Positions 2 through 60,820 of a stretch of DNA of 64,000 nt are shown here, in pieces. How positions within the stretch are numbered: position 1 is the first letter of the stretch; the number at the start of each line of letters is the position of its first letter. The DNA is from a virus (taxonomy: Duplodnaviria; Caudoviricetes): the IMG/VR virus record IMGVR_UViG_3300031555_004271, positions 21,818 to 85,817 of that record. One strand, given 5' to 3'. The translations under genes and the position numbers were made by a program. The notes beneath the pieces were generated by a model that did no database searches, had not been told where the DNA came from, and was given only the letters and a program-made list of their open reading frames with translations.

Positions 2-606
2 GCTAATTTCAATAGAGAGGTTTACAATCTATGTCTAGAATTGGTTAAGAAAACCAAACATGGATTGTTAGTAATAGGTATTAGAAACCCGACAATTGCA
101 AGAGGATCTGTACAGGTACTTCGAATTGCTCATGTAAAGGAAGACATTTCAGATTTAACAACGTCAGTTCATAACTGTATCTTAGAGTTATGGGGTGGGG
201 ATTGAAATTTCGTAGTCGTCTGTGTTAGTAATAATACAGAGTATCATTTCAAGAATTGCTGGAAAACCTTAAAAGATGATCAGCATCCAGTTATATACTG
301 GTTCAACGACTAATACCTTAAGAATTTAGGGTTAGTATGAAACATTCTTTATAGAATGAAGATATAGTCTGAACTCTATAGTTATATAGAGTTTGTAAGT
401 CTAATAAACTTACTTCAACATGTAAATAGTACGATGGTGACGTTGTTAACTTCTTCCCACTAATGGATAATGAATACAAGACTGAGTTCTACAGAGTTTT
501 CAGTCCTGATAAGATGTTCATTAGTAACAATACTGGTGCATTTAATGCTAAACTTTCTATTGACCGTGATCAAGTTATTGGTATTCATCAGTTTAATCTA
601 GACTAA
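2..606 (+). CDS. Non-virion RNA polymerase beta' N subunit, 3' part, join(<2..202,430..606); catalytic GGD|YDGD split by group I intron
   Basis: Frame 2 reads ...IGIRNPTIARGS...LELWGGD then TGA; 430-606 reads YDGDVVNFFPLMD...IHQFNLD*. The joined product restores the DxDGD motif and resembles the C-terminus of AR9 nvRNAP beta'N as recalled. Not in the ORF track. Confidence 0.9.
203..429 (+). mobile_element. Group I intron (227 nt, no ORF) in nvRNAP beta'N
   Basis: 5' exon ends in U (gat), intron ends in G (aatag). Core elements aattgctggaaa, gttcaacgacta (301-312), aagatatagtct (359-370). IGS tcgta-gtc pairs with exon gat (P1) and 3' exon tacga (P10). P9 hairpin aactctata/tatagagtt. Confidence 0.92.
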
Positions 607-1963: not shown

Positions 1964-3073
1964 ATGAGAAAAGTAAACGTTAGTGATATAGCTAAACATG
2001 AGGGAGAATTTCTGGCAAGAGACGTCTTTCATAATGGACAATTACTCGCCCAAAGTAACTCTGTAATTGATACATCACTTATTAATAGAATAACTGAATT
2101 AAGTGATCATATTTTCTATATTTTTACTTATAGTAGTGATACCTTAAATAACGACATTACAAATCTTATTACTGATGACATCTTAGACATCATTAAACAT
2201 GAAATGGATTTGATACTTAAACGTTATTCACATTCTGGTATAGAAGATATAGATTTACTCAAAAAAATCATAGATATTTTCTTAAACAATATCCTAAGAG
2301 AGAAGTATTTCAAGAACTATCTAGAGAATTTGTTTATTCTAAACTCTAAACTATTTGGTCATTCAATCAGAGTTACTATTATATCTCTTATTTTAGCTAT
2401 AAAGGCTAATTTAAGTAGCGATCTAATCAATGGCATTGCTATTGGTAGTATCTTACATGAAATTGGTAGAAACAAGTTATTTATAAAGTTTCCAATTTTA
2501 GCAGAAACTAATCATAGTTATAGTTTCGAAGAATATACTTTAATTAAAACAGTTCCAACGCTAGGTTATAATGAAGTTCTTAATAACAAGCTAGTACCAC
2601 CAGTTAGTAAAAAAATTATCTTAATGCATGATGTATGGGAGGACTTTGATAAGTCATATGATGAAGATAAAAAACTCCATATGTCATTTCCATCATACTA
2701 TCAAGATAAAAAAATTGAAAGCGAACAAAAAGGTATAGCTGTAAATATTGTACAGGCTGCAAACTATTTTGATATGTTTGCTATGAAGTTTAAGAATAGT
2801 TTCCCATCACTAGATGATCGTAAAAATATAAACAAGTTCTTTGTAAAAAATTCTAATAACATCTTCTCTAGAGAAGCATCTGAACTCATAACAAAATATA
2901 TCTCATACTTTTCAGTAGGTGAAAAAGTAACACTCTCTAATGGTAAAAAAGCAACTATAGAAAAACATACTAATGATCCAATGCATCCAATTGTAAGATT
3001 AAAAGACGATACTATACTAAATCTATCTGATGTTAAAGATAAGATTTCAATTGTTAGCATGATCAGCAAATAA
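1964..3073 (+). CDS. Degenerate HD-GYP (c-di-GMP phosphodiesterase-like) domain protein
   Basis: RpfG-like architecture: LARDV N-domain, HSIRV, ILHEIG (HD>HE), C-terminal VGEKVTLSNG; GYP and other metal ligands are substituted. Confidence 0.75.
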   Translation: MRKVNVSDIAKHEGEFLARDVFHNGQLLAQSNSVIDTSLINRITELSDHIFYIFTYSSDTLNNDITNLITDDILDIIKHEMDLILKRYSHSGIEDIDLLKKIIDIFLNNILREKYFKNYLENLFILNSKLFGHSIRVTIISLILAIKANLSSDLINGIAIGSILHEIGRNKLFIKFPILAETNHSYSFEEYTLIKTVPTLGYNEVLNNKLVPPVSKKIILMHDVWEDFDKSYDEDKKLHMSFPSYYQDKKIESEQKGIAVNIVQAANYFDMFAMKFKNSFPSLDDRKNINKFFVKNSNNIFSREASELITKYISYFSVGEKVTLSNGKKATIEKHTNDPMHPIVRLKDDTILNLSDVKDKISIVSMISK

Positions 3074-3098
3074 AAAAGGAAAGAAGTGATAAGAATTA

Positions 3099-4361
3099 AT
3101 GAAAGGTATGTCAAAGAAAACAGTAATAACTTGTAATGTTTCTAACTCTATTTGCTCTCTCTTAAGTTCTATGACAGGCTTTGCTAAAGATCTTATCATG
3201 GATTTTTTCCCAGATGAATACTTTAAAAGTGTTTATGTTTCTACTGCATTAGCCTCATCTGAACAAGCTGGTGTAAACGATGATGATATTCCATTAAAAC
3301 ATTATCCACAGTTATCAATAACGCCTTCATTTGTCCCGGATTATGATGATACTTATGGTGGTCCATATCCTACTTGGAGACGTGGAGTATTTCAAACATT
3401 TAATCACTATTCTGATCGATATGGTTATAAGAAAGTTTTTTACAATGATGAAGATAACCTTATAATCTCTGCTATACCTAATAGAATCAAATTTTCTTTT
3501 GATTACAAGATAAAAGTAGAAACTTATTTACAAAAGATGGATGTTGTCTATATGCTTAGACAAAAATTCCATAATAATGACAGAGTCTATTGGAATAACC
3601 AGTTATTAAAAGCTCAAATTCCAAATACTCTTATAAAAGCATTATCTAGTTGTAAAGATTTAGATATCAAAGATCCTCATGACAGAGAGAAATTTTTAGA
3701 CTATCTTAAAAATCATTCTCAAGGTCATATAGAACCAGTTATATATACTGGTAGTGGTAATCATACATTTGTCCATACCTATGCAGCTAATATTCTAGTA
3801 ACTGTTGAAAATCCTCCAGATACTGATGAGAAAAATGTTAGTAAAGTCAATATGGCTAGTCATGAAGAGGTAGTAGAAATGACTCTAAATATGGAACTAT
3901 GGATTCCTTCAAACTATATGTTTGAATGTAATTCTTTACCAACAGGTAAGTATGAACCTACTTTAGAAGAAAGTAAGGTGTACATTTTTGGTAATGTTCC
4001 TCTTAGACCAAACAATACTTTCATGGATAAAACTCTTATCAAATGGCAAGAACTTCTAACTGAAGTAAATACTCCACTAGATAGTATAGACATGGACGAT
4101 TTCTTACCTTTTGAAACTCTAGAATATGTAAATGAACAGTTAGAAAAAAGAGATTATGAATGTCTTGATTGTACTTTTATGTTCGTTTTATATAGAGATA
4201 GGAAAAAACTAGAATATGGTAAAGATTTTCTTGTTGATTGGAAAAACAAGAAAGTTGTTTTGGTTAACCCTTTATTTAATTATAATCATTATATTGGTTG
4301 CTATGCTAATCAGGCGACCCTATATGAATGGAAAGAAATAAAGAGAAGAAAAGAAGAATAA
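3099..4361 (+). CDS. Conserved jumbo-phage hypothetical protein, probably virion structural
   Basis: 420 aa ORF in a late-promoter operon; no catalytic motif recognised. Confidence 0.45.
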   Translation: MKGMSKKTVITCNVSNSICSLLSSMTGFAKDLIMDFFPDEYFKSVYVSTALASSEQAGVNDDDIPLKHYPQLSITPSFVPDYDDTYGGPYPTWRRGVFQTFNHYSDRYGYKKVFYNDEDNLIISAIPNRIKFSFDYKIKVETYLQKMDVVYMLRQKFHNNDRVYWNNQLLKAQIPNTLIKALSSCKDLDIKDPHDREKFLDYLKNHSQGHIEPVIYTGSGNHTFVHTYAANILVTVENPPDTDEKNVSKVNMASHEEVVEMTLNMELWIPSNYMFECNSLPTGKYEPTLEESKVYIFGNVPLRPNNTFMDKTLIKWQELLTEVNTPLDSIDMDDFLPFETLEYVNEQLEKRDYECLDCTFMFVLYRDRKKLEYGKDFLVDWKNKKVVLVNPLFNYNHYIGCYANQATLYEWKEIKRRKEE

Positions 4362-14977: not shown

Positions 14978-15319
14978 TTAACGAATCATAATTTTTATAC
15001 AGTTTTCATCTATAACCAATGTTTTAAAAATTTCATTACATTTTTTAGAATTATTAAAAAATTCAATCACATTTCTTATTTCACCATCAGACACTTCTAA
15101 AACAATGTCTTTAAACTTATTACAATTATTGTTATAAATGGTATAACCTTTAAAACCTTCCAATACTTTATACTTAATAGATCTTTCATCTAATAATAAA
15201 AGTAATTCGATAAACTTAAAAGCTTCATTTAAAAAAAGGGTAGCTTCTAATAAGTTTTCAACCTTGTTATCATCTACCCATGTAGTAAGTACTTTAAATT
15301 TTTTCAATTTTGGATTCAT
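14978..15319 (-). CDS. Hypothetical protein
   Basis: 113 aa ORF, RBS caggtg. Confidence 0.55.
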   Translation of the reverse strand: MNPKLKKFKVLTTWVDDNKVENLLEATLFLNEAFKFIELLLLLDERSIKYKVLEGFKGYTIYNNNCNKFKDIVLEVSDGEIRNVIEFFNNSKKCNEIFKTLVIDENCIKIMIR

Positions 15320-15410
15320 TATTTTGAATCACCTGACTTTCTGTAATTTTATCAATCATCAATAAATGGTATTTTCGCCTAATTACAGAAATCAAAATGA
15401 ATGAAATTTT

Positions 15411-15680
15411 TTAACGTTGATTGTAGATTTTATTCATATCACCATAAGCTTTATCCTGTTCGATCTTAGCCATGGCTTGTGCTTTTGCCTTTTCTTTTTC
15501 TTCTAAGAGTTTAGTTCGTGCTTCACATATTTCTTTTAAAAAAGCAATCTCACTATTAAGAACTTCGTCTAAAGAAATTTGTCCTGCAAACAGGTCTAAA
15601 ACTGAGACAATGAAGTCACTATCAGCTGCTCTTGAAAGTTTATAACTTACGTTGCCGTGCTCGTCCTGTTTATTCGTGTA
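15411..15680 (-). CDS. -1 frame C-terminal extension of tail assembly chaperone (G-T-like frameshift product)
   Basis: 89 open codons (YTNKQDEHG...VLDLFAGQISLDEVL...NQR*) lacking an early ATG/GTG/TTG start; overlaps the end of 15647-17167 at C CTT TTT (15686-15680). Confidence 0.65.
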   Translation of the reverse strand, partial: YTNKQDEHGNVSYKLSRAADSDFIVSVLDLFAGQISLDEVLNSEIAFLKEICEARTKLLEEKEKAKAQAMAKIEQDKAYGDMNKIYNQR

Positions 15681-17167
15681 AAAAGGATTGTTTCGATATC
15701 TACAGGAATGCCAGGTAGCTTAGTCTTACAGTGAGAACAAGTTACATTATGAATTTCATAATCAATCTTATACTTACCTAGCTTCTCCTCAATAGCATTC
15801 TCTAACTGTTCGCCATCCTTATTGGATAACTTCAGTAGGATATTTAACAATCTAGCCTTATCAGCAACCTCATAATAAGTTGCCTTACCAGTATTATATG
15901 TCTGAGCTAAGTCTAGCATGTACATATGAGAGATGAATAACATAGCACTAAATGCATCAGCATACTCTTGTAGAGTCTGCTGATTAGAGATCTTAAGTAG
16001 AGATAGATGATCATGTAGAGAAGGAGTAGATACATCTACGATAATCTTACTATCATTTAACATAACTCTTTCATCCTTATGAACAATAGATGCAGCAACT
16101 AATTCTTCACCAGTCTTAATAGAACCAATGATTTCATCACGCTTCTCATAAGTAGCTCTATCTCTAACTTCTACTAGAGATTGGTTGTTTACAGTTACAG
16201 AGGTAGTTTTACCACACTTACCACAGGTAATATCAAAATCATTGTTATCAATGAAAGTTTGACAATAAATACCAAATAGTAAAGTAGATAGATCATTAAA
16301 GGATGTAATCTTAAGCCAGTTATTGAAATCAGGCTTAGGGATAGACATGGTATGGATCTTGTTATAAACAGTTCTATATAACTTTTCTCTCATCTGGAAA
16401 ATATTACCATCAGAGTTATTAATAGCATTCTTTTCAGCTAGAGTTAAACCAGACATATTTGCTGTATAACCAGACTGACAACAAATAACAGTAAATGTAG
16501 CAACATTATTATTGAAAACTAGATCAATATCCTGTGCTTGCTGAATTGCAGGTTTATTAGTAATAGTAATCTCATTTAGATCAACTGTAATCTTATCCAT
16601 AAATGCTAATTTAGGATTATTACCTCTAGAAGAGACTCTGTTATTAGCATAACTATGATAGATATACTTTTCTTCATTTTTAGATTGAGTTACAGTTTCT
16701 TCATTTAATGCTTCTTCTACAGATTTATCAGAAGATTCCTCTTTAGAAAAATCAATGTCATCTGCATTAAAATCAATACCGAAATCAATATCGTTATGGA
16801 TATAATTGGCTTCTTCTTCAGGTTCTTCATCAAGATTTCCTAATACAGAACTAAGTCCTGCAGATTCATCCATAGGAATATCTGAAATATCTAAAGTAGA
16901 TTTAACATGAGTTTCATTAACTTTAGCATCAATTGAAGTGACATTGGCTGTTATTACACCATTTGCTTCTTTAGTAACCTCGTCTCTTACAGCATTTAGT
17001 TTAGCTAAAATCTGTTCTTTATTACCAGATTTTAGTAGTTCGTCTAAAGACGCTTCTTCAATCTTAGTTTCTCTTGCAGAAAGTGTATTATCATCAATCA
17101 AAATATTGTCAATTTTAGAATTTTCATTTAGAGTATCATTAAACTCTACTGGAATATTTTCAATCAA
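15647..17167 (-). CDS. Baseplate hub / tail assembly chaperone-like protein
   Basis: TTG start with gaggagg RBS; acidic N-region, CGKC and CSHC motifs; adjacent to gp25-like gene. Confidence 0.6.
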   Translation of the reverse strand: MIENIPVEFNDTLNENSKIDNILIDDNTLSARETKIEEASLDELLKSGNKEQILAKLNAVRDEVTKEANGVITANVTSIDAKVNETHVKSTLDISDIPMDESAGLSSVLGNLDEEPEEEANYIHNDIDFGIDFNADDIDFSKEESSDKSVEEALNEETVTQSKNEEKYIYHSYANNRVSSRGNNPKLAFMDKITVDLNEITITNKPAIQQAQDIDLVFNNNVATFTVICCQSGYTANMSGLTLAEKNAINNSDGNIFQMREKLYRTVYNKIHTMSIPKPDFNNWLKITSFNDLSTLLFGIYCQTFIDNNDFDITCGKCGKTTSVTVNNQSLVEVRDRATYEKRDEIIGSIKTGEELVAASIVHKDERVMLNDSKIIVDVSTPSLHDHLSLLKISNQQTLQEYADAFSAMLFISHMYMLDLAQTYNTGKATYYEVADKARLLNILLKLSNKDGEQLENAIEEKLGKYKIDYEIHNVTCSHCKTKLPGIPVDIETILFTRINRTSTAT

Positions 17168-58101: not shown

Positions 58102-60820
58102 ATGCAAATGGATACTTCCTATATCATAGATACTCAAACTGATAATCTATCCTTTAAGAAGATGTATAAGGTTCTTAAAGCCAAAGGTATAAAAAACAAT
58201 AAGTTCTTTCTAAAACTTTATGATAAAACATTACAAGGTGTGAATCCTAGAGATGAAGCTAATTTAACTAAAGAACAGAAAATTCGTATTTTAGCTGAGA
58301 TTAAACGAAATCCTTGGTACTTCTTAAGAGAGGTTGTTATTCTTAATGTTGCAGGTGGTAAAAAAAGATACGAACTACATCGTGGTAATTTGGCACTTTC
58401 ATGGTGTATGTTTAACAATCTTAATTCAATTATGTTACTACCTCGTCAGCATGGTAAAACAATGTCATCTATATGTAACTATGAATGGTTTTATAGATTC
58501 GGTACATTGAACTCAAACATGCTATTCATGCATAAAGACTTTGGTGGTAGTAAGAACAACCTTAAAATACTTAAAGAAATAGATGAAAATTTACCATCAT
58601 ATCTGAAAACTAAAGATAAAAAAGATATCGATAATCTAGAATACATTACAAATACTACTACTGGTAATACCATTAGAGCATTATCATCTGCTATGTCAGC
58701 TGCAGAATCAGATAAGAGAGGTAGAGGTCTTACTGCACCTTTGGTACTTTGGGACGAGTTCGCTTTCTTAAAATACAACAAAATTGTTTTCCAAGCAGCT
58801 GCACCTGCACAGTCTCAGGCTAGAGTTGAAGCTCGTAAACATAATTCTTTCTATGGTGCTACCATTATTACTACACCTAATAATATAGATAACAATCCTG
58901 AATCAGAGGGTACTTGGTGTAAGACAGAAATGGTAGAAAAAGCATGTAGATTTGATGAATCTATGTATGATTGGACTTTAGAAGAAGTTCAAGAATGTCT
59001 AGATAAGAAATCTGATAATGACTTCCTTTACATTGAATTCTCTTATAAACAACTAGGTCGTGATGAAGCATGGTACAGAGAAAACTGTCGTGCATTGAAT
59101 AATGACTTACTAAAGATCAAACGTGAGATTCTACTAGAATGGACAAAGGCATCTGACGTCTCTGTCTTCTCAGAAGAACAATTAGTTGCAATTGAAAAAC
59201 ATCTTAAGGAACCAGTAGGTAAAATAGTTCTTAATAAATTCTGGACATTAGATCTTTATAGAACTGACATAGATTACAATATACCTTGGGTTGTATCATG
59301 TGACGTTGGTACAGGTCTATCACAAGACTCTTCAGCTATTACTATATTCAATCCATTAACATTTGAGATCATAGGTGAGTTTAGAGAGAATAAGATCAGC
59401 ACAGACGACTTTAAAGACTTTATTTATCAACTTGTAGGATTATATTTCCGTAATTCTATGGTAGTTATAGAAAACAACTCTATTGGTATAGCTATACTTC
59501 AAGCTTTAATGAAAACTGCTATTTCTAGAAATTTGTATTATGAATATAAAGATAGAAAAGCACAAAAAATAGAAAAATCTAAAACTGAAATTGTCCATGT
59601 AAGTAAAAAAGAAAAATTACAGATCTATGGTGTTTCTACTACTAGTTCTTCTCGTGATTTAATGCTCGAAATTTTAAATGATACAGTTAATGATAGCCCT
59701 GAAAAACTTGCTACTCCTAACCTTTATTCAGACATTAAAGGATTGGAACGTGATAATAAGGGTAGAAAATTTTGCTCTTTTCTAAAAAATTTTCTTAATT
59801 GCTGGAAATTCTTATAACGATTATAAGAGAATCAGCAGCTATTAAAAACGTAAAAAAAAAAGAACTCATATTAGAATGAGTTCTTTTATGGGGTTATTAT
59901 GCTTCTTCTTCAGAAGCGGTAGTTTCTTCTTCGGTAACGGTTTCTTCAACGGTTTCTTCTACAGGCGCTTCTTCTGCAGCAGGTTCCTCGGCAATAGGCT
60001 CTTCATAAGTAGTCTCAGTAGCTACCTTTTCAGCCTTCTTGGTCTGGATAATCTTGTCAACCTTCTTGGCACCCTTGACACCACCATAGAAGGATGCACC
60101 GCCAAGAACACCAATGCCGACAGTCTTCAAGATAGTACCGACGACGACCTTTGCTGCAATACCTGCTACAACACTAATACCGATCATAATAATTTACTCC
60201 TTTTATATTGTAAAAAATTTTAGAAGATATTAAACTTTTATCTTCTTTTCTACAATTATAATATATAAATATAAATACTGAAAATACGTTTTTAATAGTT
60301 CAACGACTAAATAGTACATTATGAGTATAATGGAAATAGAAAACTTTTACTATCTTTATAGTAATTGAAGATATAGTCTCGGTCACTATGGATACATAGT
60401 GTATGACATCTTACAAATGTCAAGATAAGGCTGCCAAAAATTGGTCATGGTGTAGGACTTCATGATGATAGTCTATTCTCTTACTTAGTTGGTAGGTATG
60501 CTTTAGCATATGGTACTAATCTATCTAGGTTCCAAATGCCTATTAATGGTAAAACTCCAAAAGATAGAAAATCTAGTATGTATAGAATGTCTCATAATCT
60601 GTCTGAGGTTAATAGAAATTCTGCTAGAGTTAGAGCTAGTAAAGCTAGTAGTTACAATGGATTAGCCAACGATATGATTGAAGAATCTGCTTATTTAGAT
60701 TTAAGAAGGAAGATAGATAGTGGTGGACGTATAGGTGCTTATACTACACTAAGTCAAATTGAAGAATTAAATAGATTTGATAGAAATCAGTCTGCAGGAC
60801 ATGATTTATGGAAAAAATAA
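58102..60820 (+). CDS. terL: Terminase large subunit, join(58102..59763,60434..60820) (exon 2 may start at 60437)
   Basis: LPRQHGKT Walker A, LWDEFAF Walker B, CDVG nuclease Asp; exon 2 supplies KIGHGVGLHDD. Confidence 0.88.
59852..59886 (-). terminator. Terminator of the intron-borne antisense gene
   Basis: aaaagaactcat-loop-atgagttctttt with a long T-run on the minus strand. Confidence 0.8.
59897..60187 (-). CDS. Intron-encoded 96 aa protein: Gly-rich hydrophobic N-terminus, basic linker, acidic tail
   Basis: AAGGAG RBS at 60197-60202, TATATATTATAA motif at ~60256-60269, own terminator; no nuclease motif. Confidence 0.8.
   Translation of the reverse strand: MIGISVVAGIAAKVVVGTILKTVGIGVLGGASFYGGVKGAKKVDKIIQTKKAEKVATETTYEEPIAEEPAAEEAPVEETVEETVTEEETTASEEEA

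Follow-up and report, generated by a model that had tools for sequence, protein, structure and literature searches.

The two genes encoding the beta'-N subunits of the non-virion (nv) and virion (v) RNA polymerases (RNAPs) of an uncultured phage are interrupted by small group I introns at one and the same codon boundary, right after the first Asp codon of the DxDGD Mg-binding motif. Independent insertion is the most likely explanation for this coincidence: each paralog was probably invaded on its own by an intron from an abundant family of group I (IA2-like) elements, small and devoid of endonucleases, found circulating among the AR9-like jumbo phages of this clade. Their location is explained by the habit of selfish elements of settling in conserved active-site codons.

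Source phage and identity of the interrupted genes

We analyzed a stretch of 64,000 nucleotides (hereafter, the window) corresponding to bases 21818-85817 of an 85.8-kb IMG/VR fragment, which represents ~33% of a genome. The source is an uncultured jumbo phage and a distant relative of Bacillus phage AR9/PBS1, the RNAP subunits of the two being ~41-45% identical in protein sequence. The related complete genomes used for comparison were G001 (319 kb) and G002 (299 kb), whose nv protein is 88-89% identical to that of the window. The nv gene is an ortholog of AR9 gp270 (nvRNAP beta'-N), with a match to chain d of PDB 7S00/7S01 (E 7e-68), and it also matches phiKZ gp55 in PDB 7OGP as well as phrog_2987. 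The v gene is an ortholog of AR9 g145 ('virion RNAP subunit'), to which its exon 1 is 45% identical and, in the last exon of g145, its exon 2 is 55% identical; it matches phrog_2986 with an E-value of 4e-101. A Pfam search with both beta'-N proteins and their neighbors found no family, and the identity of the genes rests on the PDB, PHROGs and tblastn comparisons. Megablast of both regions against cultured phages gave no match, since this phage is only ~45% identical to AR9 at the protein level.

Two introns at the same codon boundary

A sequence-only reading of this DNA had proposed two ORF-less group I introns, one in each gene, at the same codon boundary of the Mg-binding motif, and its coordinates (Table 1) proved right. 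The nv motif is uninterrupted in G001 and G002 (loci L012 and L013; GAT^TAT/TAC GAT/GAC GG, where the caret marks the insertion point, here and below) and the v motif is uninterrupted in G002, which has an empty site; these intron-less alleles fix the intron boundaries to the base. At the protein level, the alignment of nv exon 1 to AR9 gp270 (7S00 chain d) stops at residue 392, and that of exon 2 runs from 393 to 446. The joined v exons are colinear with AR9 g145, and the two exons are contiguous in the intron-less phages Goe21, BpSp, LPJP1, S6, PALS_2, SA1 and UFV_DC4. Removal of both introns restores the reading frame of the intron-less homologs.

Table 1 Exons, introns and intron elements of the two beta'-N genes (window coordinates unless stated otherwise; the caret marks the intron position).
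Feature	Position	Strand	Details
nv RNAP beta'-N exon 1	G000:C1:20811 (upstream of the window) to window 202; in-window part 2-202	+	ends ...WGGD; ...TGG GGT GGG GAT
nv intron	203-429	+	227 nt, ORF-less; starts TGA (in-frame stop), ends G429; splits GGD^YDGD
nv intron elements, hand-read	guide 210-220 (P10 part 210-214, P1 part 215-220); P2 219-240; P3 247-251/338-342	+	
nv intron elements, hand-read	P4 257-262/280-285; P6 287-291/297-301; P7 308-312/365-369; P7.1 315-332	+	
nv intron elements, hand-read	P8 343-358; P9 374-391; P9.1 395-413; terminal G 429	+	
nv RNAP beta'-N exon 2	430-606, stop codon included	+	YDGDVVNFF...; starts TAC GAT GGT GAC
v RNAP beta'-N exon 1	27667-26297	-	457 aa; ends ...LGAD; ...GGA GCG GAT
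v intron	26296-26100	-	197 nt, ORF-less; starts TAA (in-frame stop), ends G26100; splits GAD^FDGD
v intron elements	guide GUUCGCU 26285-26279; P3 5' strand 26273-26268; P4 5' strand 26263-26258	-	
v intron elements	P7 26212-26208/26166-26162; terminal G 26100	-	
v RNAP beta'-N exon 2	26099-25932, stop codon included	-	FDGDTVSLRS...; starts TTT GAC GGT GAC

The group I assignment was borne out by Infernal searches with the Rfam family RF00028 (Intron_gpI). Both introns matched in local searches, the nv intron with 54.9 bits (E 2.5e-13), above the gathering score of 50, and the v intron with 46.2 bits (E 8.8e-11), below it; in a whole-contig search, the E-values were 1.1e-14 and 4.5e-12, respectively. 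A cmscan of the whole window (1-64000) at the gathering threshold with default filters returned neither intron, though the nv intron scored above gathering when 451 nt were searched alone; Infernal speed filters hide these AT-rich introns in whole-window scans. Neither intron contains an endonuclease-size ORF (overlapping ORFs are all <=53 aa, and none lies inside on the sense strand), and the ORFs flanking the introns gave no match to any endonuclease family. Readings as inteins, split genes or frameshifts were ruled out: the inserts match an RNA family and begin with stop codons, and exon 2 has no ribosome-binding site. The window holds a third group I intron at 59754-60433 (+ strand), with its 5' half at ~59754-59919, its 3' half at 60298-60401 and an insert between them.

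Intron architecture and proposed splicing

The nv intron possesses helices P1, P2 (9 bp, with a GUAA loop), P3, P4, P5, P6, P7, P7.1, P8, P9 and P9.1, and its free-energy fold (z-score -3.2) predicts P1, P2, P6, P7.1, P8 and P9. The v intron possesses P3, P4, P5, P6, P7 and P7.1 and has neither P2 nor P8; its fold has a z-score of -4.3, with a predicted P1 of 7-8 bp. P8 is normally a conserved, constant helix of the group I core. In the alignment of the v intron to RF00028, all P8 positions are deleted, and our family alignment has a P8 gap in the window's v intron and in its G001 ortholog alike. Because the v intron scores below the Rfam gathering threshold and lacks P8, its autonomous activity appears less certain. 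In this intron and the G001 ortholog (L015:4372-4572), P7.1 is followed by P3' and then directly by J8/7, with no P8 hairpin, and a second family intron in G001 (at 261655; L040:1490-1645, - strand) appears to lack P8, too. We also considered an alternative reading of the v intron, with the hairpin as P8 and AAUUU as P3', and ruled it out, since family members have the same hairpin, then P3', and then a separate P8. Covariation across 16 family members showed an invariant P4, many compensatory changes among the 4 pairs of P6 and one compensatory change in P7.

The guide sequences are fitted to each intron's own exons, as the sequence-only reading had stated. By sequence inspection, the v guide GUUCGCU pairs perfectly with the exon AGCGGAU over 7 bp, which include the P1 wobble U26297.G26285. 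The nv guide GUCGUC pairs with the 5' exon GGGGAU at 5/6 positions, with the wobble U202.G215 and one internal GxG mismatch in P1, and the nv UCGUA pairs at 5/5 positions with the 3' exon UACGA to form P10. Against GGC GAU, which other nv genes have at these codons (e.g., L060 and L065), the nv guide would pair without a mismatch.

By standard group I chemistry, the last exon U of the pre-mRNA (in GAU, the first Asp codon) would form a U.G wobble in P1 with the guide, exogenous guanosine would attack at this wobble, and P10 would align the 3' exon, so that the exons would be joined and the terminal G (429 or 26100) released. Ligation would restore GGD-YDGD and GAD-FDGD. Unspliced RNA would halt at once at the TGA or TAA codon, yielding a subunit devoid of two Mg-binding aspartates. 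With an in-frame stop opening each intron within the motif, the production of both catalytic subunits would thus depend on splicing, as had been proposed. The gene of a beta'-C-like subunit upstream is also split by an intron and would need splicing as well, and the same holds for AR9.

Two members of one intron family

Both introns are members of a single family of small IA2-like introns, and a prolific one. RF00028 matched 5 times in this 86-kb fragment, 8 times in G001, 7 in G002, 18 in AR9 and 5 in Staphylococcus phage MarsHill, counts that include matches that are halves of a single intron. The shared core elements pointed out earlier are real: the window contains 3 copies of GTTCAACGACTA, where 0.24 would be expected. 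This sequence is the family's generic core and no special mark of the nv and v pair, and the motifs GUUCAACGACUA and AAGAUAUAGUCU, common to both introns, are likewise family core. The IA2 introns of T4 td, nrdB and nrdD and Twort orf142, located in essential phage genes, have a similar core (GUUCAACGACUA ... AAGAUAUAGUC) with P7.1 between P7 and P3'; unlike the window's v intron, they have P8.

Full-length identity between the nv and v introns is 63%, lower than any other value in the comparison set; the nv intron is 68-74% identical to introns in other genes, including 74% to a G002 intron in the beta'-C-like RNAP gene, 72% to the ribozyme of an ORF-bearing G001 intron and 68% to two more introns. 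Nor is either the other's best match, v ranking 4th for nv and nv 6th for v by local alignment. In its 5' part (P1-P2-P3), the nv intron shares 87% identity with an ORF-bearing G001 intron in another gene, and P2 shows compensatory changes between the two. A maximum-likelihood tree of the ~160-nt core, although nearly unresolved, placed nv and v on opposite sides of a weak split, not as sisters; forcing them into one clade costs 14 log-likelihood units, and the AU test (p 0.125) neither supports nor rejects such a joint clade. Their architecture differs in P2 and P8, present in nv and missing in v. Common descent of both introns within the family, at some depth, is certain, and a direct, recent link between them is disfavored. 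The sequence-only reading had a single intron lineage colonizing the catalytic site of both paralogs, a claim that the identity, ranking, tree and architecture do not support; the timing of the two gains (see below) also speaks against it.

Other members of the family occur in other genes. A beta'-C-like RNAP gene, with a weak match to 7S00 chain D (E 3e-7), lies ~5 kb upstream of the window (G000:C1 ~15300-15900; L007) and is cut in a bridge-helix-like segment (...YARAKL ^ ...KNTEVGGYLVKQSRSGY) by a family intron in G000, G001 and G002. Introns of this gene are found at G001:66462-66669 and at G002:180037-180250 and 180603-180849; the second G002 intron, further down the gene, is the closest full-length relative of the nv intron (the 74% match above). 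Locus L040 (G001:261890-262975, - strand) comprises an intron in a structural, possibly portal gene, with an ORF of ~280 aa inserted in the P5 region that carries a C-terminal VSR/PD-(D/E)XK-like motif; no other ribozyme matches the 5' part of the nv intron as well as that of this intron.

Age and distribution of each intron

We surveyed the D^xDGD insertion site in cultured phages, IMG/VR and metagenomes. The v intron is present at the same site in G001 and two other contigs (L014-L016). Between the window and G001, this intron is 84% identical, the exons 82% and the third codon positions 62%. Intron and exon divergence thus keep pace, which indicates that the v intron is old, was inherited vertically under constraint and predates the split from G001.

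At the nv site, the survey revealed no second D^YDGD intron: it is absent in every other nv homolog sampled (~18 genomes and contigs from cultured phages, IMG/VR and metagenomes), the empty sites including those of G001, G002, L050, L052, L053, L061-L065, phiR1-37, BpSp, LPJP1 and Goe21. We infer from this distribution that the nv intron was gained later, in the window's lineage only, and from a source other than the resident v intron, because a copy of that intron younger than the split would be expected to exceed 84% identity, against an actual 63% and a different architecture. Its guide best fits the nv-type site GGC GAU^UAC GA, which points to a putative gain by recombination or homing from another phage's nv gene, with an endonuclease ORF lost or never present. 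A search for a donor with the exact P1-P2 pattern gave 0 matches, and the P7/P9 pattern gave 28 matches in unrelated contigs, each <=50 nt and none of them a donor; the fragment covers only 33% of the genome, and a closer relative of the nv intron could lie in the rest. Sliding-window divergence against L012 and L013 showed no peak indicative of a co-conversion tract around the nv intron, these relatives being, at 18-21% divergence, too far for this test.

The catalytic motif as an intron hot spot

The codons of the DxDGD loop are a known intron hot spot in both paralogs of jumbo phages. Group I introns need a U as the last exon base at their 5' splice site, and U-ending boundaries occur in the motif after GAT, after GGT and also after TTT (v) or the second GAT (nv), which leaves ~2-3 usable boundaries per gene. 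The shared codon boundary can be explained because introns favor the conserved motif and the 5' exon must end in U; given these boundaries, insertions made in the motif independently of each other would stand a chance of about one third to one half of sharing one. According to reviews, introns favor conserved active-site residues, the reason given being that imprecise loss there is lethal (PMC12908238; PMC11620839).

The sequence-only reading had noted that RNAP introns are known in AR9 and phiKZ-like phages, which is true and yet understated: AR9 already has introns inside both catalytic motifs. A study by Lavysh et al. from 2016 is reportedly linked to the introns of AR9/PBS1 g270 and g145. 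In AR9 (joins of GenBank KU878088), the same two genes, whose proteins are 41-45% identical to those of the window, carry group I introns in the DxDGD codons of both polymerases. However, the AR9 sites, DYDG^D in g270 (nv) and DYD^GD in g145 (v), lie 3 and 2 codons downstream of the site used in the window phage, both introns contain homing-endonuclease ORFs (HNH and Hef-like, respectively) and span 0.9-2 kb, and the AR9 v gene has a second, group II-looking intron near residue 394. An intron near residue 394 of the vRNAP beta'-N is thus found in AR9 (g145 intron 1, L011 ~2646-4197) and also in G002 (L057/L058, G002:139959-141487) and several Staphylococcus jumbo phages; it contains a domain-V-like hairpin CUGUGUGAGGUGAAAGUCUCACGCACAG and for this reason looks like group II. 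The window's v gene does not have it.

In phiKZ (gp55/gp56/gp56.1), the nv beta'-N homolog is likewise cut within NADFDGD. This is a distant phage (~30% identity), though, with the site 2 codons upstream (N^ADFDGD) and an intron that carries the ORF of the HNH protein gp56; a chain of PDB 7OGP is named PHIKZ055 + PHIKZ056.1, the joined phiKZ protein in solved structures. The vRNAP beta'-N gene of MarsHill has a group I intron of ~190 nt in the v motif, ORF-less as in the window phage, and that of L017 (IMG/VR contig UViG_3300029305_002869) has one carrying an ORF; both differ from the window in their site, DFDG^D. A metagenomic nv beta'-N gene (L060:3166-3560) is interrupted at DYDG^D by an ORF-less intron related to that of AR9 g270, with a 5' exon that apparently ends in C (GGC^A), not U. 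The gp210 intron of PhiPA3, also of group I, sits in the vRNAP beta-subunit gene, beside conserved aspartates of the catalytic region, and exemplifies why introns target sites of this kind (Birkholz et al. 2024, PMC11620839). It differs from the window introns, which have no endonuclease, in that it interrupts beta instead of beta' and encodes an HNH endonuclease, an active nicking enzyme whose competitive role has been demonstrated (PMC11620839).

Alternative explanations

A single lineage might instead have passed from one catalytic site to the other, through reverse splicing or through ectopic homing of an endonuclease that reads the conserved GAY^TWY GAY GGT GAY DNA of either gene, with the common boundary as the footprint of this event. 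The exon DNA is indeed alike at the nv and v sites (of the central 24 bp, 18 are identical, and 20 if the empty L013 allele is taken for nv), which makes cross-recognition by one endonuclease conceivable. The introns are also of the same family, with the core and the P7.1, P9 and P9.1 design in common; the order of gain, v first and nv later, is compatible; other phages use the DxDG^D boundary in both paralogs; and the AU test leaves the joint clade standing. Nevertheless, we consider this movement quite improbable: the pair has the lowest identity of the whole set, with P2 and P8 in nv alone; a copy younger than the split from G001 should resemble the v intron more than the 84% identical v ortholog does; and, by sequence inspection, the nv guides GUCGUC and UCGUA suit the exons of nv, while on those of v two P1 positions and P10 would be mispaired. 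We likewise give little credence to the joint reading in which the coincidence of boundaries results from cross-paralog homing by an endonuclease now lost or unsampled and the v intron is a functional natural ribozyme without P8 and P2. A different possibility is that loss of P8 and P2 has left the v intron unable to act as an autonomous ribozyme, so that it needs a protein or RNA helper from the phage or the host, or splices poorly. The Rfam alignment without P8 positions, the score below gathering and the P8 gap common to the window and G001 favor this idea, which we nonetheless regard as unlikely given that the intron was kept and its helices maintained while the exons diverged by 18%, that its P1 is perfect and the gene essential, and that a second family member (G001 at 261655) also apparently lacks P8.

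The sequence-only reading had further raised a possible GTP/Mg-sensitive checkpoint, in which splicing would have been co-opted to gate both polymerases by GTP, Mg or translation state. In its favor count the dependence of both catalytic subunits and of the upstream beta'-C-like gene on splicing, the in-frame stop that opens each intron, and the report that splicing of T4 introns varies with conditions (Sandegren and Sjoberg 2007, as cited in PMC10914365). However, the nv intron is absent in all relatives and the v intron in G002 and most AR9-like phages, so that this type of phage evidently functions without them; the introns have neither a sensor domain nor any extra structure; and the virion RNAP arrives pre-made, so early transcription need not await splicing. 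Cellular GTP is, moreover, far above the guanosine Km of group I introns. Such a checkpoint is, in our judgment, highly improbable. Separate insertion of two family members thus stands as our preferred explanation, and we infer that both introns self-splice and have no regulatory role, the nv intron having probably been gained by the route outlined above.

Implications

The two introns are a further case of a known phage-intron habit, and they leave the understanding of phage transcription unchanged. They provide a well-delimited example of the rule that, in essential phage genes, it is the most conserved codons that selfish introns occupy: in our survey, the RNAP catalytic loop (5-7 codons) has been invaded at at least 4 boundaries, in both paralogs, across jumbo phages. 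The practical use lies in genome annotation, where either catalytic subunit would pass for a truncated or split one if the exons were left unjoined. Finally, the empty and occupied alleles constitute a natural test set for intron gain, endonuclease loss and a minimal P8-less ribozyme.
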